Assembly: GCA_002839645.1 (NCBI GenBank)
Contig: PGYL01000012.1
Location: 12,706-76,705 of the forward strand
Length of the DNA: 64,000 nucleotides
Origin: Methanomicrobiales archaeon HGW-Methanomicrobiales-2
GTDB taxonomy: Archaea > Halobacteriota > Methanomicrobia > Methanomicrobiales > Methanoculleaceae
Reading direction: 5' to 3'
This document shows positions 1,614 through 62,822 of the stretch, in pieces. Position 1 is the stretch's first letter; each line of letters opens with the position of its first letter. Position numbers and translations under genes: made by a program. The notes below the pieces were generated by a model that was not told where the DNA came from, made no database searches, and was given only the letters and a program-made list of their open reading frames with translations.

Positions 1614-2638
1614 TGGCACTCTACACACACCACCTGCCCAGGTGGAAGAAGGACGAAGTAGACGAGATCAAGCGCGGTATCGCGGAGCACACCCTCGTCG
1701 GCGTTGTGGATATGTACGGCATCCCTGCCTCACAGATCCAGCATATCCGGCGAAACCTCCGCGGCACGGCGCGAGTGAAGATGGCCCGGAACACGCTGAT
1801 CGAGCACGCCTTAAACGAGCTCGGCGGCACTGTCGCGGCTCTAAACGAGCACGCCGAGGGCCAGAGCGCCATGATCTTCACGAACGAGAACCCTTTCAAG
1901 CTCTTCAAACTGCTTGAACAGACCAAGACGAAGATGGCGGCGAAGCCCGGCGAGACTGCGCCGGAGGACATCGTCGTTCCGAAGGGTCCAACCACCTTCA
2001 AGCCCGGCCCCATTGTCGGCGAGCTTCAGCAGGTGGGCATTCCCGCAGCCATCGAAGGCGGAAAGGTCAAGATTCGTGAGGCCAAGACGGTCGTGAAGAA
2101 GGGCGAGGTCATCAATAAGAAGGTTGCCGATGCCCTGGTGAAACTCGGGATCAAGCCGATGGATGTCGGTCTCCTCCTGCAGGCCGCATACTACAAGAAC
2201 ACCATCTTTACGCCGGACCTCCTCGCTATCGATGAAGAGGCCTACTACAACAACATCGTGCTTGCTGCCCAGCAGGCGTTCAACCTCTCGGTCAATGCCG
2301 TCATCGCGACCCCGATGACCGTCAGTGCCATCATCGGCAGGGCGGTACGCGAAGCCCGGAACGTGGGCGTCGATGCGAGCATCTATGAGAAGGACATCGT
2401 CGACCTGATCATCGGACGGGCACAGCGGGAGATGCTGGTCGTCGCGCTTGCGGCGCAAGGCCGCGGCTTCGAGCTCGATGAGGCGACCCTGAAGGCAGCT
2501 TCGGCAGCAACCGCTGCGGCACCCGCCGCAACAGAGGCAGCAGTCGAGGCAAAGCCCGAGGAAGAGGAGAAGGAAGAGGAGAAGAAGGAAGAGGAAGAAG
2601 AGAGCGGCATGGCCGGTCTCGGGGCCCTCTTCGGCTAA
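1613..2638 (+). CDS. rpl10: Acidic ribosomal protein P0 (uL10)
   Basis: QHIRRNLRG...KMARNTL...GPTTFKPGPIVGELQQVGIPAAIEGGK; Ala/Glu-rich tail ending [11 protein letters not shown]; 1-bp overlap with rpl1. Confidence 0.96.
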   Translation: MALYTHHLPRWKKDEVDEIKRGIAEHTLVGVVDMYGIPASQIQHIRRNLRGTARVKMARNTLIEHALNELGGTVAALNEHAEGQSAMIFTNENPFKLFKLLEQTKTKMAAKPGETAPEDIVVPKGPTTFKPGPIVGELQQVGIPAAIEGGKVKIREAKTVVKKGEVINKKVADALVKLGIKPMDVGLLLQAAYYKNTIFTPDLLAIDEEAYYNNIVLAAQQAFNLSVNAVIATPMTVSAIIGRAVREARNVGVDASIYEKDIVDLIIGRAQREMLVVALAAQGRGFELDEATLKAASAATAAAPAATEAAVEAKPEEEEKEEEKKEEEEESGMAGLGALFG

Positions 2639-2669
2639 TAATTATAAGAAAACCAAAGGTGAATGAACT

Positions 2670-2984
2670 ATGGAGTATATCTACGCTGCACTGCTCCTGC
2701 ACAACGCAGGCAAAGACGTAACTGAAGAGAATGTGACTGCTGTCCTGAACGCGGCCGGTGTCGCCGTCCAGGATGCCCGCGTGAAGGCGCTCGTCGCCGC
2801 ACTCGAGGGTGTGAACATCGAGGAGGCCATCAGCAAGGCCGCCGTCGCACCAGTCGCCGCTGTAGCCGCAGCCGCTGCCCCGGCAGCCGCCGCGCCCGCA
2901 GCCCAGGAAGAGGCTGAGGAAGAGGGGAAGAAGGAAGAGGAAGAAGAGAGCGGCATGGCCGGTCTCGGCGCCCTCTTCGGCTAA
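2670..2984 (+). CDS. rpl12: Archaeal stalk protein L12 (P1)
   Basis: [26 protein letters not shown]...[16 protein letters not shown]. Confidence 0.97.
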
Positions 2985-50225: not shown

Positions 50226-54358
<4,133 letters not shown>

Positions 54359-54362
<4 letters not shown>

Positions 54363-54841
54363 CAACACAAGCACACAAGAATGAATCAGCCCTCCTGGTC
54401 TTCGGGTGCCCGGAGGTCCCGGTGCAGGCGGCAATCGGCCTCTACCTTGCAGGCCGGCTCGGTGAAGGCGGCTACGACGTCCTCAGTGCCGGAAACCCCT
54501 CGGTTCTCGTCCTCCTTCGCGTCTCCGACTGGAAGAAGCGCTACATCAGAAGGACCATCGACCTCGACCGCTGCATCGGAGAGGTGGCGGAAGGCAAGAG
54601 AGATGCCGGTCTCTGCGTGGTCTTCGCTCATAACGATGCCGGCATCTCATACGCCGCCTCGATGCGCTATCTCCTCCCGGATTCGCGCCTCATCGTCGTC
54701 GTCTTCGGCCGGAACGCCGAAGAACTCGCAGCGCAGATTGAGTTTCCCTGCGAAAAGGTCGTGGAGAAAGCGGTCCACAACCCGGGGAAACTGAAGAAAG
54801 GGATCGACGAGGTCTTCGGATGGCGTGCATCGACGAGCTGA
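54359..54841 (+). CDS. DUF1890-family protein
   Basis: LLVFGCPEVPVQ, AGNPS, HNDAGISY, AVHNP; ATGA overlap with metX. Confidence 0.75.
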
Positions 54842-55110
54842 ACCCGGAGATTCTTCTCCGGGGAGCCTCTTTTGCCGAGTGCCGGGCAACGGTGGAGAAA
54901 CGCTGCCGCGAGGTCTACTACGTTGACCCGGGGTACGCGATCTTTGATACGCATATCATCGGGGTCCCGCCGATCGCCGTCGGGGTGGAGGATACCTTCA
55001 TCGTCTTCCCCTTCACCAAACCCTGCTACGGGACCTACCTGATCCGGGTGCCGGGGGGCGAGGAGGTCGAACGACTCCGGAAGAAAGGCAAAACCGGAAG
55101 GAAACCATGA
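54820..55110 (+). CDS. DUF1894-family protein
   Basis: MACID...PGYAIFD...GVPPIAVG...FPFTKPCYGT. Confidence 0.75.
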   Translation: MACIDELNPEILLRGASFAECRATVEKRCREVYYVDPGYAIFDTHIIGVPPIAVGVEDTFIVFPFTKPCYGTYLIRVPGGEEVERLRKKGKTGRKP

Positions 55111-56243
55111 ACGGCACGGAACAGGTCTGGCTGGTGCGTTACTCCGAGATCTTCCTCAAGTCGGAGCCTGTCCGCCGGGAATGGGAGAAGACGCTTATCC
55201 GGAACATCAGGCGGGTGCTACCCGGTGCAAAAGCCCGGCGGGAGCGCGGGAGGATCTGGCTTGCCGGGGAGGTCGACCCGGAGGTGCTCAGGAACGTCTT
55301 CGGGGTCGTCTCGTTCTCGCTCTGCGACGTCGTGCCGCTTGAGGGACTGCCGGCGGGTCTCCTCGCGTTCTGTGATGGTCACGGTATCACGGAGGCCGCG
55401 ACCTTCGCCCTCCGGATCCGGCGTGTCGGGAAGCATCCCTTCACCTCCCGGGATCTTGCCGAACGGCTTGGTGACCTGGTCTGTGCGGAGTACCCGCATC
55501 TTCAGGTCGATCTCGACGACCCGGAGCGGGAGATCTTCATCGAGGTCCGGGACGGGACCTGCTACCTCTTCGACCGGAAGATCCCGGCCGTCGGCGGCAT
55601 CCCCCTCGGCGTCGAGGGGACGCTCGTCGCCCTCGTCTCCGGTGGGATCGACTCCCCGGTCGCGGCCTACCTGATGATGAAGCGCGGGTGCCGGATCGTT
55701 CCGCTCTACGTCGGGCTCGAAGGCTACCTCGATGAGACGAACCTCGCCCGGACGAAGGCCACGGTTGAGGCCCTCCGTCGCTACCAGCCCGACATCGAAC
55801 TTCTGGTCGTCGAGGACGGCTACCTCGCCCGGGCACGGCGGGCGCTCGAAGAGTGGGGAGAGGAGCGCTATACCTGCCTCCTCTGCAAGCGGAGGATGTA
55901 CCGAATCGCCGCCGAGGTCGCGGGGAGGACAGGGGCGAAGGGTTTCGTCACCGGCGAGTCGATGGGCCAGGTCGCATCGCAGACCCTCGACAACCTGGCG
56001 GTGCTCACCGATGCGGCGGCGATCCCGGTCTACCGGCCGCTGATCGCGTTCGACAAGGAGGACGTCGTCCGGCTCGCTCGCGAGATCGGGACGTTCGACG
56101 CCTCGATCGCCCCGGCCGGCGGCTGCAGAGCAGTACCGGCACGACCGTCCACGGCTGCGAGGATCGAGGCGGTCCGTGCACTCGAAGAGGCGGTAGGGGA
56201 TGCCGGAGACGTGGGAGTGCTGCCAATTCAAGTACCTGAATGA
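55107..56243 (+). CDS. thiI: tRNA 4-thiouridine synthase ThiI
   Basis: [15 protein letters not shown] domain, PP-loop [27 protein letters not shown], distal Cys. Confidence 0.93.
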
Positions 56244-56263
56244 CAAGAGGGAGATCGATAGCG

Positions 56264-57196
56264 ATGGGACGGATATACCATGACATCACCTGGACGATCG
56301 GGAACACCCCGCTCGTCCGGCTGAATCGGGTGACGGAAGGCTCCCGGGCGACGGTCCTCGCCAAGGTGGAGTCGTTCAACCCGATGGGGAGCGTGAAAGA
56401 CCGGATAGGGGTCGCGATGATCGACGAGGCCGAACGGGCCGGCGAGATCCGGGAGGGGACGACGATCGTCGAGGCGACGAGCGGGAACACCGGGATTGCA
56501 CTTGCGTTCGTCTGCGCGGCCCGCGGCTACCCGCTCAGGCTCGTGATGCCCGAGACGATGAGCATGGAGCGGCGCAAGCTCCTCGCAGCACTTGGTGCCG
56601 AGGTGGTCCTCACGCCCGGGGCCGGGGGGATGAAGGGAGCGGTCGACCGTGCGGCCCGGATCGCCGCCGAGAGGCCGGACACCTACTTCGTGCCCCGGCA
56701 GTTCGAGAACCCGGCGAACCCCGCCGTCCACCGCCGGACGACGGCCGAGGAGATCTGGCGGGACACCGACGGGACCGTCGACGCCGTCGTCGCAGGCGTC
56801 GGGACGGGCGGGACAATCACCGGGGTTGCCGAGGTCCTCAAGGCGCGAAGACCGTCCTTTAAGGCGATCGCCGTCGAACCGGTGGAGTCCCCCGTCCTCT
56901 CCGGAGGACCGGCCGGCCCGCACCGGATCCAGGGGATCGGGGCCGGGTTCGTGCCGCAGGTGCTCCGGACCGATCTCGTCGACGAGGTATTCCAGGTCAC
57001 CTCCGCGGATGCCTTTGCGATGAGCCGCCTGCTTGCCCGGAAGGAGGGGATCCTCGCTGGCATCTCGTCGGGCGCGGCTGTCCACGCCGCCTGTGAGGTT
57101 GCCCGCCGGCCGGATTACGAGGGGAAGGTTATCGTCGTGATCCTCCCGGATACCGGCGAGCGGTATCTCTCGACGGATCTCTTCGAGGCGCAGTAG
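56264..57196 (+). CDS. cysK: Cysteine synthase A (O-acetylserine sulfhydrylase)
   Basis: [44 protein letters not shown]. Confidence 0.96.
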
Positions 57197-57210: not shown

Positions 57211-58164
57211 GTGAACCTCAGGGAGGATATCCGGACAGTCTTTGCAAAAGACCCGGCGGCCCGGTCGACGATCGAGGTGATCTGCTGCTACCCGGGCCTC
57301 CACGCGATCTGGGCGCACCGGATCGCGCATGCCTTCTATCGCCGCCGGCTCTACTTCCCGGCCCGTCTGGTCTCTCATATCGCCCGGGCGCTGACCGGGA
57401 TCGAGATCCACCCCGGAGCGAAGATCGGCCGCCGGGTCTTCATCGACCACGGCTCAGGCGTCGTGATCGGGGAGACGGCGGAGGTTGGGGACGACGTCCT
57501 GATCTACATGGGTGTGGTGCTCGGCGGCACCGCGCTCGAGCAGACGAAACGGCACCCGACCATCGAGGATAACGTCGTCATCGGGTCGGGGGCGAGCGTT
57601 CTCGGCCCCATCACCGTCGGGCGCGGGGCAAAGATCGGCGCCGGTTCGGTCGTCGTCCACCCCGTCCCCGCCGGTGCGACGGTCGTGGGCGTTCCGGGCA
57701 GGCTTGCCGGCCCAAAGTGCCAGAAGGGCCAGGAGAAACTCGACCGTGGCGATCTCCCCGACCCGATGCTCCGGGTGGTCAGCCGCATGCTTGATAGGCA
57801 GAATCGGATCGAAGAGCGGCTCCGGGCGGTGGAGCGGTCGGGTCTGGTTGGCGATAAACGGCGGGAGGAGATCGTAATCGAGGAGAGCGTCCGGGCGGCA
57901 CTTAAAGAAGTGATCGACCCGGAGGTCGGGATCGACGTCGTCGACCTCGGTCTGATCAAGGGGATCACCGTCCAGGACTCCTCGGTGCTTGTGGAGATGG
58001 TCCTGACCACCGCCGCCTGCCCGCTCGTCGACTACCTTACTGACCGGGTCCGGCGCCGGGTGCTTGACGTGAGCGGCGTCCGGGACGTCGAGGTCCGGGT
58101 GCTCGACGAGCCCTGGGACTGGGACCGGTTCTTCGGTCAGAGGGACGTTCTCAGGGAATTCTGA
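57211..58164 (+). CDS. cysE: Serine O-acetyltransferase fused to a C-terminal SufT/DUF59 (FeS_assembly_P) domain
   Basis: KDPAARS...[32 protein letters not shown]; linker PDP; then DPE-X27-T-X3-C domain ([15 protein letters not shown]...LTTAACP). Confidence 0.92.
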
Positions 58165-59137
58165 AGTCGGGTTTACCGGGGAGGTCCAGCATCCGCCGGA
58201 TTGCCGTCCGCGCCCGGGCGGCGGTATCCTCCGGGACCGTCACCCGCGGCTCGAGCCGTTCGAGGGCCGCGAGCACCTTTGCGAGATCGGTCTTCTTCAT
58301 GTTGACGCAGACCGCCTTATTCGAGAGGGGGTAGAAGACTTTCCCCGGGCACTTCTTTTCGAGCTGGTGGAGGAGCCCGACCTCGGTGCCGATGACGAAC
58401 TCCCGTCCCGGACTTGCGCAGGCGTGCCGCACCATCCCTGAGGTCGAGAAGACGTGATCGGCAAGGTCGATCACCTCGGGCCGGCACTCGGGGTGGACGA
58501 GCACCTCGGCGTCCGGATGGGCCCGGCGGGCTTCCTCCACATCCCCGGCCGTCATCCGGTCGTGGACGATGCAGTAGCCATCCCAGGGGAGGATCTCTTT
58601 TTTGGTGAACCGGGCGACGTAGCGGCCGAGGTTTCGGTCGGGGAGGAAGATCACCTGCTCTGCGTCGAGCGACTCGACGACGGCGACGGCGTTTGCGGAG
58701 GTGCAGCAGATGTCGCTCTCCGCCTTCACTTCGGCCGAGGTGTTGACGTAGGCGACGACGGCGGCGTCCGGGAACCGCTCGCGGAGCACCCGGACCTCGC
58801 CGGGGGCGACCATCTCCGCCATCGGGCAGCAGGCGTCGGCTGCGGGGAGAAGGACAGTCTTTGCCGGCGCGAGGATCGCGGCCGTCTCGGCCATGAAGTC
58901 GACGCCGGCAAAGACGATGACGTCGGCGTCGATCGCCGCCGCCGCCCGTGCGAGTTCGAGCGAGTCCCCGACGAGGTCGGCGACCTCCTGCACCTCGGGG
59001 ATCTGGTAGTTGTGCGCGAGGATGACGGCGTCGCGCTCCTCTTTCAACGCGGCTATCCGTTCGGCGAGGGTTCGATCGGGACTGGTGGACGGGATGGTAT
59101 CACAACCTCTTCTGGTCAAAGGTGCAGCCTTCTTCAC
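58151..59137 (-). CDS. nadA: Quinolinate synthase NadA
   Basis: ILAHNYQ, GDSLEL, GVDFMAE, CPMA, YVNTSA, CCTSANA, HPEC, STSGM, CVNMK; true start uncertain (GTG at 59137 or ATC at 59095). Confidence 0.94.
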
Positions 59138-59622: not shown

Positions 59623-60135
59623 TCACAGGAGAGAACGGCCTCTCGCCGCCGGCCGGCCCGGAGGCGTCACGAAGGGGCGCGACCTGTCGACCAGCCCCGC
59701 CTGCCCCCGCTTTGACCTGCAAAACCCTTCAAACCGGCACAGAAGATCCGTGCTGCCCGCATCGGTGCCGATGAACTCGACCAAATGACGGATCTGTTCG
59801 ATGGTCTCCGGAGAGAGTTCATGCTCCATGATACAGGCATCCCGGGAGGCAGCCCCCTCCGGCACCCGGATGAGCGTGAGGAAGGCCCGGAGCGTCTCGT
59901 GCCGGTACTTGATGACTTCGGCAATGCTCCGGCCTTCGGGTGTCAGGGTCACCCCCTCGTACCGGCGGTGCGTGACGAGACCCATCGCGTCGAGTTTCCT
60001 GACCATCTCGACGACCGTCGGAGGTCTGACCGAGAGCTCCGCGGCGATATCTCTTGTCTTTGCGTAGCCTTTATCGAGAGATACGTTGAGGATCGCCTCG
60101 AGATAATCTTCCGCTTTCCGGCTCAGGTTCCGCAC
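59623..60135 (-). CDS. DtxR/MntR-family metal-dependent repressor (no SH3/FeoA domain)
   Basis: EDYLEAI, VRPPTVVEMVRKL, HETLRAFL, DACIMEH. Confidence 0.92.
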   Translation of the reverse strand: MRNLSRKAEDYLEAILNVSLDKGYAKTRDIAAELSVRPPTVVEMVRKLDAMGLVTHRRYEGVTLTPEGRSIAEVIKYRHETLRAFLTLIRVPEGAASRDACIMEHELSPETIEQIRHLVEFIGTDAGSTDLLCRFEGFCRSKRGQAGLVDRSRPFVTPPGRPAARGRSLL

Positions 60136-60170
60136 AGTATAGGAATGTCTGATGCCAGAGCATATAATTG

Positions 60171-60239
60171 TTAGGCTATCCTAACTCTGGCGGGCTCCAC
60201 CGGCAGCGGCGATATTCGGTTTTTTCCAGGTTTTCCTAA
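60171..60239. promoter_or_regulatory. DtxR-type boxes between the regulator and feoA
   Basis: TTAGG-CTAT-CCTAA (60171-84, perfect arms) and CCAGG-TTTT-CCTAA (60226-39). Confidence 0.72.
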
Positions 60240-60316
60240 CATCTTTCGGGGAATCGGGCCGGCACCAAAACAGTTTCGGCGCGAGATTATCCCGACCAAA
60301 CAAGAGAGCAGGATCC

Positions 60317-60589
60317 ATGGAACCATCGGATCGAAACGCCCCGTCGCGTGGAGCGACAACCACTCTCGATCGTATCGGCCTTGCCTGCCGGTGCCATGTC
60401 GTCGGCATCCGCGCCTCCGGGGCGCTCCGGAAACGGTTGCTCGCCATGGGCATGGTGCCCGGGGCGGATGTGGAGGCCGTCAGGGCCGCCCCGCTCGGCG
60501 ATCCCGTCGAGTATCGGGTGAAAGGATACGCTCTCTCGCTACGGCGTGCCGAGGCGGGCCTCATTGAAGTCGTCCTGGAGGAGGAATGA
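60317..60589 (+). CDS. feoA: Ferrous iron transport protein A
   Basis: RKRLLAMGMVPG...RAAPLGDPVEYRVKGYALSLR. Confidence 0.93.
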   Translation: MEPSDRNAPSRGATTTLDRIGLACRCHVVGIRASGALRKRLLAMGMVPGADVEAVRAAPLGDPVEYRVKGYALSLRRAEAGLIEVVLEEE

Positions 60590-60828
60590 TGGACCCCATC
60601 TGCCCGCTCGCCCTCCTCTCCGCCGGGACCGAGGCAACGATCGCCGAGGTCAGGGCCGGCAAAGAGATGCGGTTCCGCCTCGCCGGGATGGGGCTCTGCC
60701 CCGGTGCACGGGTACGGGCGCAGTGCGTCGACCGGGGTTCGCTCATCGTCTCGGTCGGCGACGCCCGGTACGCCCTCTCGCGGGGGATAGCGATGAAGAT
60801 ACTCGTCGGAGAACCGGAGGCTGCATGA
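60586..60828 (+). CDS. feoA: Second ferrous iron transport protein A
   Basis: RLAGMGLCPGA...GDARYALSRGIAMKI; ATGA overlaps on both sides. Confidence 0.88.
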   Translation: MMDPICPLALLSAGTEATIAEVRAGKEMRFRLAGMGLCPGARVRAQCVDRGSLIVSVGDARYALSRGIAMKILVGEPEAA

Positions 60829-62822
60829 CCGGGATCCGGATTGCACTTACCGGCAACCCCAACGTCGGGAAAACGACGCTTTTCAACGCGCTCACCGGGT
60901 CCCGCCAGCACGTCGGGAACTGGCCGGGCGTCACGGTCGAGAAGAAGACCGGCCGGATCGACTGGAACGGCCATGCCATCGATGTGATCGATCTCCCGGG
61001 GACCTACAGCCTGACTGCCTACTCCGCGGACGAGGTCGTCGCACGGGACTATATCATTGATGAGAACCCGGATGTCGTCGTCCAGGTCGTGGACGCGACG
61101 AACCTCGAGCGGAACCTCTATCTGACGACCCAGCTTGCCGAACTCGGGGTTCCGGTCGTCATTGCCCTGAACATGGCCGATGCAGCCGAGGCCGGGGGAT
61201 ACGCCATCGACCGGGAGAAACTCTCGGCGCTCCTTGCGATCCCGGTCGTGCGGACGGTTGGAACCAGGGGCGAGGGGCTCGATGGCCTCCTCGACGCTGC
61301 GATCCGGGAGGCGGAGACGTCGCCGCACCACGAACACACCGTCGGATACGGGAACGACGCGGAGGCGATGATCGCTTCAATCGTCGACGTCCTCTCAGCC
61401 GACAAAGATCTTACAAAACGGTATCCTCTCCGCTGGCTCGCGGTCAGGCTCCTGGAAGGGGACGAGAACGCCCTCGCTAAAATCAGGGACAGCCCTGCCT
61501 TTACCGGGGTGCAGGCTCTCCTCTCCGGAATCGATCCCGACGAGTACGAGGCCGCGATGGCGGACAGGCGCTATGAGATGATCGCCGCCGTCCTACCGCA
61601 GGTGCGCACCGCGGGTGCCGGGGGCATGAACGTCTCGGAGATGGTCGACCGCGTCGTCACGGACCGGTACCTCGGCATCCCGATCTTCCTGGCCCTGATG
61701 TGGGGGGCGTTCGAACTGACGTTTGCGGTCGCAGCGCCCTTTGTAGCCCTGATCGAGGCAGGGCTTGCCTGGCTCTCCGCGACCGTGGCCGGATCGATCG
61801 AGCCCGGATGGCTTGCATCGCTCGTCGGCGACGGGATCATCGGCGGTGTCGGCGCTGTCCTCGTCTTCGTCCCGAACATCTTCATCCTCTTCCTGATCCT
61901 CTCGTTCCTCGATGACACCGGCTACCTGGCGCGGGCCGCGTTCATCATGGACCGGCTCATGTACGCCATCGGGCTGCCGGGGAAGGCGTTCATCCCGATG
62001 CTGATCGGGTTCGGGTGCAACGTCCCCGGGATCATGGCGGCCCGGACGATCGAGGGCGAGAAAGACCGGCTGATCACGATCCTGGTAAACCCGTTCATAT
62101 CCTGCAGCGCGAGGCTTCCCGTATACATCCTCTTCGCCGGCGCATTCTTCGGGGCGGGAGCAGGGGGCGTCGTCTTCCTCCTCTACATCCTCGGCATCGC
62201 CGCCGCCATCGGGTCCGCGAAACTCTTCCGGCACACGATCCTGCCGGGAGAGTCGTCCCCCTTCATCATGGAGATGCCGCCCTACCGGCTCCCGACGGCG
62301 TGGACGAGCCTGCTCCACATGTGGAGCAGAGGAGCGATGTATGTCCGGAAGGCAGGGACGATCATCCTCGTTGGGGCTCTCGTAGTCTGGTGCCTGGCAT
62401 CGCTCCCGTTCGGTGTCGATTACGGAAGCAGTGCGAGCCTTGCGGGCGCTCTCGGGCACCTGCTCGAGCCGCTCGTCGCGCCGCTCGGGTTTGACTGGAA
62501 GATCGCGGTGGCGCTGCTCTTCGGGTTCGTGGCAAAAGAGGTCGTTGTCGGATCGCTCGGCGTGCTCTACGGAACCGGGGAAGGGGGAGACGCGCTCTCG
62601 ATGGCGCTCCTCGCCGACCCCGGCCTCTCGGCGGCGACCGCACTCGCCCTGATGATCTTCGTACTGCTCTACACGCCCTGCCTCGCAACGATCGCGACCA
62701 TCCGGAAAGAGACGGGGTCGTGGCGATGGGCCGGCTTTTCGGTGGCGTACGGCCTCGTCCTCGCCTGGCTGCTGGCACTGATCGTCGGGCATATCGCCTC
62801 GCTCTTCCTCGGAGGTGCATGA
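60825..62822 (+). CDS. feoB: Ferrous iron transport protein B
   Basis: GNPNVGKT, GNWPGVTVE, DLPGTYSL, NMAD; GFGCNVP, CSARLP, YTPCLAT. Confidence 0.96.
   Translation: MTGIRIALTGNPNVGKTTLFNALTGSRQHVGNWPGVTVEKKTGRIDWNGHAIDVIDLPGTYSLTAYSADEVVARDYIIDENPDVVVQVVDATNLERNLYLTTQLAELGVPVVIALNMADAAEAGGYAIDREKLSALLAIPVVRTVGTRGEGLDGLLDAAIREAETSPHHEHTVGYGNDAEAMIASIVDVLSADKDLTKRYPLRWLAVRLLEGDENALAKIRDSPAFTGVQALLSGIDPDEYEAAMADRRYEMIAAVLPQVRTAGAGGMNVSEMVDRVVTDRYLGIPIFLALMWGAFELTFAVAAPFVALIEAGLAWLSATVAGSIEPGWLASLVGDGIIGGVGAVLVFVPNIFILFLILSFLDDTGYLARAAFIMDRLMYAIGLPGKAFIPMLIGFGCNVPGIMAARTIEGEKDRLITILVNPFISCSARLPVYILFAGAFFGAGAGGVVFLLYILGIAAAIGSAKLFRHTILPGESSPFIMEMPPYRLPTAWTSLLHMWSRGAMYVRKAGTIILVGALVVWCLASLPFGVDYGSSASLAGALGHLLEPLVAPLGFDWKIAVALLFGFVAKEVVVGSLGVLYGTGEGGDALSMALLADPGLSAATALALMIFVLLYTPCLATIATIRKETGSWRWAGFSVAYGLVLAWLLALIVGHIASLFLGGA

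Follow-up and report, generated by a model that had tools for sequence, protein, structure and literature searches.

Proteins of the DUF59 family (SufT, CIA2/MIP18, AE7 and the N-terminal domain of HCF101) are important across the three domains of life for the maturation of iron-sulfur (Fe-S) proteins, and their molecular function is unsettled. They are required for the maturation of Fe-S proteins in Staphylococcus aureus (PMC4982691) and in Mycobacterium tuberculosis (PMC9045647), and the Cys of the domain has been described as hyper-reactive (PMC4982691). The SufT protein of M. tuberculosis forms a homodimer and binds SufS and SufU through its conserved Cys; neither Fe nor Fe-S is bound (PMC9045647). 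Serine acetyltransferases (SATs; CysE) of the short type typically have an extended C-terminal helix and are predicted to be trimeric, and the C-terminal tail of CysE mediates both feedback inhibition and complex formation (PMC13040420). Mashruwala et al. (2016, PLoS Genet, PMC4982691) cataloged, under the label ‘S9’ and with one example, an architecture in which a CysE-like domain is followed by DUF59. Here, a CysE-DUF59 gene is described from Methanomicrobiales archaeon HGW-Methanomicrobiales-2, where it occupies positions 57211-58164 of a 64,000-nucleotide (nt) stretch of contig PGYL01000012.1 (hereafter, the window).

The window protein has the same domain order as S9, with an N-terminal CysE-like part and then DUF59. 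The S9 survey gave its one example with no analysis; here, the family was found in at least 153 species-representative genomes and the gene contexts were recorded. A preliminary description of the window, made from the letters alone, had named no characterized CysE with this domain, and our literature search likewise found no functional or biochemical study of a CysE-DUF59 protein. One database record among the best 120 matches carried the name ‘Serine acetyltransferase PaaD-like protein involved in Fe-S cluster assembly.’ The architecture is known but unstudied; what is new is the extent of the family, the occurrence of DUF59 only as a fusion in Methanomicrobiales, and the recurrent desulfurase and scaffold context. 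The study of Methanosarcina barkeri cysE and cysK by Kitabatake and colleagues in 2000 reportedly tested only cysK functionally.

Stand-alone DUF59 proteins (S. aureus SufT, M. tuberculosis Rv1466, TM0487, and TTHB138) share with the window protein the PF01883 domain, the DPE...T...C signature and an aligned reactive Cys. Unlike these proteins, the window DUF59 is fused to CysE and does not lie in a suf operon. A true SufT equivalog was ruled out by NCBIfam cut-offs (TIGR02945, 65.8 vs. 143.4 bits; TIGR03406, 56.4 vs. 202.6 bits) and by context, as the open reading frames (ORFs) beside the fusion gene (50-64 kb) included no identified sufBC genes. PaaD, the phenylacetyl-CoA epoxidase subunit, was ruled out in the same way (NF041868, 67.3 vs. 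180 bits; TIGR02159, 37 vs. 108.15 bits), and no paa genes were identified near the fusion gene.

Short CysE enzymes of the S. aureus, M. tuberculosis, and B. subtilis type resemble the window protein in having no N-terminal SATase_N domain of ~76 amino acids (aa), in the left-handed beta-helix core, in the extended C-terminal helix starting with LPDP, and in pairing with cysK. The window protein differs in its ~110 extra residues past the helix, which comprise DUF59 and a new tail. In IscU-DUF59 (‘S5’), in DUF59-P-loop NTPase proteins of the Mrp/HCF101 type, and in PaaD, DUF59 is likewise an accessory module in or near Fe-S assembly (PMC4982691). In CysE-DUF59, by contrast, the partner is a biosynthetic enzyme ahead of sulfur mobilization rather than a scaffold or carrier.

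One further CysE fusion was found in Caenispirillum salinarum (P0202, 379 aa), in which a short CysE is followed by a C-terminal NifW (PF03206, 110.8 bits). NifP/CysE1 is the serine acetyltransferase of nif clusters in diazotrophs, and the CysE-NifW protein appears to be a join of neighboring cysE1/nifP and nifW genes of such clusters. In NifP and CysE-NifW, SAT is tied, physically or genetically, to a metallocluster assembly that consumes cysteine via a desulfurase, as proposed here for CysE-DUF59. The partner domain is a different one (NifW instead of DUF59), and the nif system is bacterial and confined to nitrogenase. Because this separate fusion exists, the coupling of SAT to cysteine-consuming cluster assembly is shown to have arisen more than once. 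The other long CysE proteins in the representative search carried low-complexity tails rather than DUF59, with the exceptions of P0202 and of P0178 and P0180, which belong to the fused family.

Domain Architecture of the CysE-DUF59 Protein

The gene is a single 317-aa ORF that starts with GTG and stops with TGA. A purine-rich GGGGGA, resembling a Shine-Dalgarno sequence, lies 8-14 nt 5' of the GTG. Both domains scored above curated thresholds, in agreement with the preliminary claim that a complete CysE and DUF59 are fused in one frame. The CysE equivalog model TIGR01172 matched residues 4-164 at 242.1 bits (NCBIfam cut-off 210.65; model positions 2-162 of 162), and the left-handed beta-helix's hexapeptide repeats matched PF00132 (Hexapep) at 50.9 bits (Pfam). 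The FeS_assembly_P/DUF59 model PF01883 matched residues 224-297 at 70.7 bits (Pfam cut-off 23.5; model positions 1-73 of 73), beginning at nt 57880, exactly where the domain had been placed. A profile of the C-terminal part matched the solved structures 1uwd (TM0487), 2cu6 (TTHB138), 5ird, and 3lno at E values of 1e-17 to 1e-18, with the Cys aligned. A chance origin of these matches is excluded, because the curated thresholds were passed and because the same in-frame architecture recurs in the 120 best matches and in 78 of 78 related loci.

The CysE module was of the short isoform, since SATase_N (PF06426), the mark of the long hexameric isoform, had no match in the window protein (Pfam) and since SATs in the PDB, which matched at an E value of 1e-39, aligned only from their residue ~80-100 onward. 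Across an alignment of 21 fused proteins (64-92% identity), E65 in GIEIHPGA and H80 in IDHG were invariant; we take this pair to be equivalent to the catalytic D143 and H158 of Escherichia coli CysE. From family membership and these conserved catalytic residues, we infer that the window protein supplies O-acetylserine to the CysK encoded by the adjacent gene.

The segment between the two domains, previously described as a PDP/coiled-coil linker, was predicted to be helical at residues 187-209 in an AlphaFold2 (AF2) model, at a low predicted local distance difference test score (pLDDT). Unfused relatives from other archaea and Chloroflexota aligned with the window protein up to residues 205-214 and then ended, some with a classical ...GAGI tail. 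The linker is no new element: its nearly invariant helix is the extended C-terminal helix of short CysE isoforms (PMC13040420). DUF59 was thus appended behind a complete short CysE. The AF2 model, built from 21 sequences, had a mean pLDDT of 71.7, with a good SAT core and a moderate alpha/beta DUF59 (pLDDT ~60-90), and served for secondary structure only.

The DPE-x27-T-x3-C signature was found at residues 236-270, as claimed. Residues D236, P237, E238, T266, C270, and P271, together with the LDEPWxWxRF block, were invariant among the 21 fused proteins, and the DUF59 domain contained only one invariant Cys. In a larger set of 126 fused proteins, all had T-x3-C, 122 had DPE and 4 had DPG, so that the expected conservation of the motif was borne out. 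A second Cys, Cys170, lies in the context GP[KE]C and could pair with Cys270; neither the Methanosarcina versions nor the unfused relatives had it.

The C-terminal residue varied within the fused family. Ile was the last residue in 37 of 78 proteins and Val in 14 (51/78 together), and 24 of 123 unfused short CysE representatives ended in Ile. The Ile and Val endings of the fused family hint that a CysK-docking tail was moved to the new C-terminus. The preliminary description had taken for granted that CysE forms a complex with CysK: the Ile and Val endings of the relatives agree with this premise, while the window protein ends in Phe. Because its C-terminus (...LREF) has no docking Ile, complex formation by the window protein itself is uncertain.

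Distribution and Origin of the Fusion

With linker plus DUF59 as the query, 153 relatives were recovered from a set holding one genome for each species. Loci were drawn from the best 80, and 78 of these had enough DNA for analysis. In all 78 testable species loci the CysE part lay in the same frame with no intervening stop. In total, four groups were represented among the 78 loci and added genomes: Methanomicrobiales, Methanotrichales, Methanosarcina, and Methanomethylovorans. Among 5.8 billion proteins, each of the best 120 matches carried both domains (64-92% identity); named sources of these matches were Methanoculleus, Methanocalculus, Methanoregula, and Methanothrix/Methanotrichaceae. Methanosarcina (M. 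thermophila and M. flavescens) and Methanomethylovorans hollandica were added by searches of whole genomes and by exact look-ups.

The single exception to an unsplit gene was locus L090 (Methanosarcinaceae; genome G348, 1971-2925, minus strand), in which the fusion was divided into a 175-aa CysE ORF and an overlapping 175-aa ORF of linker plus DUF59. This split resembles a frameshift; the gene may be truly split or may have become a pseudogene, or the sequence may contain an error. The preliminary description had allowed that relatives might encode two separate genes, and that the fusion might be an artefact of assembly or strain. This was ruled out by the 78 in-frame loci and by the presence of both domains in the 120 best matches.

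In a CysE tree the archaeal fused proteins formed one clade (Shimodaira-Hasegawa-like approximate likelihood ratio test, SH-aLRT, 93), in which the only other rows were three short sequences resembling fragments of fused genes. The fused family made up about two clusters in a set of 1.84 billion representatives at 50% identity. The one clade and the small number of clusters point to a single fusion event that has since been retained. This tree had a polytomy at its base, and the bacterial and archaeal fusions may have one origin or separate ones.

A census of 121 sampled Methanomicrobiales genomes found PF01883 in 24, nearly always as a single copy, and no DUF59 of any kind in the other 97. 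Each full-length match shared its frame with a CysE part; among the 24 carriers, two matches were cut by contig ends and one 81%-complete genome had just a 72-aa fragment. Within Methanomicrobiales, DUF59 exists solely as a CysE fusion. In the genome of the window, the sole DUF59, and the sole CysE above cut-off, was the window gene. Because DUF59 occurs only in this form, its role in these genomes would be tied to CysE.

SepCysS was found in 118 of the 121 genomes, and cysE was wholly absent in 9 of 14 sampled congeners. Because of this absence and the patchy distribution overall, cysK/cysE-DUF59 is an optional accessory cassette, present in about one-fifth of Methanomicrobiales on top of a universal tRNA-dependent SepCysS route.

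Desulfurase and Scaffold Genes Near CysE-DUF59

Across related loci with enough DNA, cysK was immediately upstream of the fusion gene in 67 of 76. Within 4 kb of the fusion gene, 11 loci had genes for IscS/IscU and 15 had one for a SufS-like desulfurase; together these made up 25 of 78 loci, where ~1% would be expected by chance. The arrangements varied, and the loci came from six groups: Methanoregula, Methanotrichaceae, Methanoculleus, Methanocalculus, Methanosphaerula, and Methanospirillum.

The only fused cluster outside archaea, and the most informative context, was bacterial, named Anaerolineales, and was represented by two 8-kb metagenome contigs (L095 and L096), with a gene for an extracytoplasmic function (ECF) sigma factor on the contig. 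The first part of this gene cluster encoded a SufS-like desulfurase, a short NifU_N protein (99 aa), CysE-DUF59, and a NifS/IscS-type desulfurase, the last of which had a start overlapping the end of the CysE-DUF59 gene. The second part encoded ferritin, an unrelated small protein (23S rRNA IVP family), IscU-DUF59, TusA, FTR1, and a rhodanese. The IscU-DUF59 gene lay 2.3 kb from the CysE-DUF59 gene. A pairing of the two DUF59 domains as paralogues was not supported, given their distant similarity and the missing Cys of the IscU-fused copy.

A SAT gene set among desulfurase and scaffold genes was seen in these 25 loci and in the bacterial homologue, and not in the window. The link to Fe-S metabolism proposed in the preliminary description is supported by this gene context; the delivery of clusters to the Fe-S enzymes of the operon, which it also proposed, is not supported (see below). 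In Methanosarcina acetivorans, a functional iscSU2 pair clusters with genes of methionine and NAD biosynthesis (PMC7585200). The fusion gene of the window is flanked by metY, metX, and nadA, the same classes of genes.

In the genome of the window, contigs C39 and C40 held two iscS-iscU pairs and a single SufS-like gene. The fusion gene lay 8 kb from the end of its contig (C45, 78,720 bp), and iscU, iscS and the sufS-like gene lay 1.6-5.6 kb from the end of C40 (56,205 bp), so these genes could adjoin across an assembly gap. In a congener (G436) the fusion gene and the iscU, iscS, and sufS-like genes were 7-10 kb apart. A SufS-like domain within open frames of ~880-970 aa (C10:5005-6171 in the genome of the window) was nearly universal in Methanomicrobiales.

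Possible Roles of the Fused DUF59 Domain

The reading that we favor, and hold tentatively as somewhat short of probable, is that DUF59 tethers a cysteine-making enzyme to a cysteine desulfurase and/or a U-type scaffold. The N-terminal short SAT would make O-acetylserine for the CysK encoded just upstream, and the C-terminal helix of CysE is kept and runs on into a SufT-like DUF59, which would act as a docking module rather than a cluster carrier. The pocket around Cys270 (D236, E238, T266, and C270) would grip a pyridoxal phosphate (PLP) cysteine desulfurase and/or a U-type scaffold, for which the two IscS-IscU pairs and the one SufS-like protein of the same genome are candidate partners. Fresh cysteine would then be passed straight to sulfur mobilization for Fe-S clusters and thio-cofactors. 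A docking role fits because the SufT of M. tuberculosis binds SufS and SufU through its Cys, and binds no Fe or Fe-S (PMC9045647). The stronger proposal, that CysE-DUF59 nucleates a metabolon of CysK, CysE-DUF59, an IscS or SufS-like desulfurase, and IscU, in which DUF59 docks the desulfurases and scaffolds, is possible and more doubtful than tethering as such.

Several observations weigh against docking. About two-thirds of the related loci had no desulfurase or IscU neighbor inside 4 kb, and the 64-kb window itself had no desulfurase or IscU gene, the copies of its genome being on other contigs. The distribution of IscU was uninformative, as it was present in 97 of the 121 genomes (24/24 carriers and 73/97 non-carriers of the fusion). 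A stand-alone SufS-like gene was only weakly associated with the fusion, being found in ~16 of the 24 carriers and also in many non-carriers. The position of cysK and cysE near desulfurases could reflect shared cysteine metabolism alone and say nothing on DUF59. In the bacterial cluster the IscU-fused DUF59 lacked the Cys and was only distantly similar to the CysE-fused one. Finally, the linker (residues 160-199) and tail (residues 300-317) of the AF2 model had pLDDT values below 50.

DUF59 could instead be a regulatory sensor, in line with the other suggestion of the preliminary description, that Fe-S status tunes cysteine synthesis. In such a sensor, Cys270, perhaps together with Cys170, would respond to redox, persulfide or Fe-S status and move the adjacent helix or tail, the site of cysteine feedback inhibition in CysE enzymes, so that SAT follows Fe-S demand. 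The regulatory C-terminal helix immediately precedes the domain and is more conserved than any other stretch beyond the active site, and the C-terminal tail of CysE has documented roles in feedback inhibition and complex formation (PMC13040420). The hyper-reactive Cys of DUF59 (PMC4982691) and the retention of Cys170 in 18 of 21 fused proteins would also suit a sensor. Yet a sensor function is not known for any DUF59 protein, the Methanosarcina versions lack Cys170, and a sensor would leave the repeated presence of desulfurase and scaffold neighbors unexplained. On balance, a sensor seems unlikely.

Slightly harder to credit is a purely structural part, with a homodimerizing DUF59 that joins trimers of a short CysE without the hexamer-forming N-terminus, or that stabilizes the CysE-CysK complex, and no role in Fe-S metabolism. 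Short CysE isoforms are predicted trimers (PMC13040420), the SufT of M. tuberculosis homodimerizes (PMC9045647), and the terminal Ile or Val past DUF59 in 51 of 78 relatives suggests that a CysK-docking tail is still in use. However, such a module would explain neither the strict retention of the DPE, T, and C signature nor the context of desulfurase, scaffold, ferritin, and TusA genes, and most short CysE enzymes manage without a domain of this kind.

The preliminary description had suggested that DUF59 carries Fe-S clusters and delivers them to SepCysS, ThiI and NadA on a CysE-CysK platform. In its favor, Fe-S protein maturation in S. aureus and M. tuberculosis depends on DUF59 proteins (PMC4982691, PMC9045647), the operon encodes families reported to hold clusters, and an iron-uptake locus (DtxR, FeoA, FeoA, and FeoB) follows directly. 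Nevertheless, SepCysS occurs in 118 of 121 genomes and DUF59 in 24, and therefore the Fe-S enzymes of the operon mature without DUF59, which is not a general maturase. Just one Cys of the domain is invariant, neither Fe nor Fe-S is bound by the SufT of M. tuberculosis (PMC9045647), and in many loci the fusion stands away from ThiI, SepCysS, and NadA. We regard a cluster carrier as very improbable.

Least credible is a neutral Rosetta-stone fusion of once-adjacent genes, in which DUF59 acts like a free SufT and the tether has no consequence, for although fusions of neighboring genes are common (e.g., CysE-NifW) and L090 has the two halves as separate overlapping ORFs, that split resembles a frameshift, an unfused cysE with an adjacent DUF59 gene was seen in 0 of 78 loci, the fusion, with its nearly invariant linker, has been retained in at least three orders, and genomes without cysE are also without DUF59.

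Gene Neighborhood in the Window

The features of the fusion gene and its surroundings are collected in Table 1. The stop of cysK, at position 57196, lies 14 nt before the start of cysE-DUF59, and the 3' ends of the convergent cysE-DUF59 and nadA genes share 14 nt (58151-58164).

Table 1. Features of the CysE-DUF59 gene and neighboring genes, in window coordinates.
Feature	Position	Strand	Basis
cysE-DUF59 gene, whole	57211-58164	+	ORF call; in-frame fusion in 78/78 related loci
Serine O-acetyltransferase core, short (‘truncated’) isoform, helical cap and left-handed beta-helix, residues 4-164	57220-57702	+	TIGR01172, Hexapep, PDB SAT matches
Cys170, border of beta-helix and linker	57718-57720	+	Present in 18/21 fused proteins
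Nearly invariant helix, residues 183-209 (‘PDP/coiled-coil linker’)	57757-57837	+	Invariant columns D184-E201; unfused relatives align through residues 205-214
DUF59/FeS_assembly_P domain, SufT-like, residues 224-297	57880-58101	+	PF01883 and profile matches to solved DUF59 structures
Signature DPE(236-238)-x27-T266-x3-C270	57916-58020	+	C270 aligns with TM0487 Cys, where the DUF59 family has its conserved reactive Cys
LDEPWxWxRF block and variable tail (...GQRDVLREF)	58102-58161	+	Alignment, C-terminal residue counts
cysK (O-acetylserine sulfhydrylase)	56240-57196	+	TIGR01139, 460.7 bits; 14 nt upstream of fusion gene
Remaining co-directional sulfur operon: long SepCysS paralogue, MetY (from 51596), MetX-CBS, DUF1890, DUF1894, ThiI	50226-56243	+	Profile matches
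nadA (quinolinate synthase), convergent with fusion gene	58151-59137	-	Profile matches
DtxR-family iron-dependent repressor	59623-60135	-	Iron-uptake module
FeoA	60317-60589		Iron-uptake module
Second FeoA	60586-60828		Iron-uptake module
FeoB	60825-62822		Iron-uptake module

The SepCysS of the operon (50124/50226-51599, plus strand) is a longer second paralogue with an N-terminal extension of ~60-90 aa; the other copy of the same genome is at C61:14683-15810. Copies of SepCysS in long frames (465-534 aa) were found within ~5-10 kb of CysE-DUF59 in many other carrier genomes. The methanogen-specific DUF1890/DUF1894 pair (54353-55110) lies between metX-CBS and thiI, and was also seen beside cysK/cysE-DUF59 in Methanoculleus, Methanocalculus, and one Methanospirillaceae locus. 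Directly downstream, the sulfur operon is followed by an iron-uptake module (59623-62822). Genes for iron import thus adjoin those for sulfur assimilation in the window, and the bacterial CysE-DUF59 cluster likewise has ferritin and FTR1.

Implications for DUF59 and Methanogen Fe-S Metabolism

As a sequence feature CysE-DUF59 is unsurprising, yet it offers a usable handle on the function of DUF59. That DUF59 is fused, with strict conservation, to the enzyme that commits serine to cysteine synthesis serves as a Rosetta-stone clue to the supply side, where cysteine reaches the desulfurase, and not to cluster delivery. The repeated placement beside desulfurases and U-type scaffolds points likewise to the supply side. 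The fusion-carrying Methanosarcina species are genetically tractable, which makes for easy testing.

The patchy cassette, on top of the SepCysS route, bears on how methanogens split sulfide and cysteine as sources of sulfur. The IscSU and SufBC systems of methanogens are regarded as minimal ones that lack accessory factors (PMC7585200), and the CysE-fused DUF59 would be a candidate accessory factor for such systems. If the metabolon proposed above were true, it would give a defined molecular role to the DUF59/SufT/CIA2 family and would reveal an overlooked accessory factor of the ‘minimal’ methanogen ISC (iron-sulfur cluster) system.

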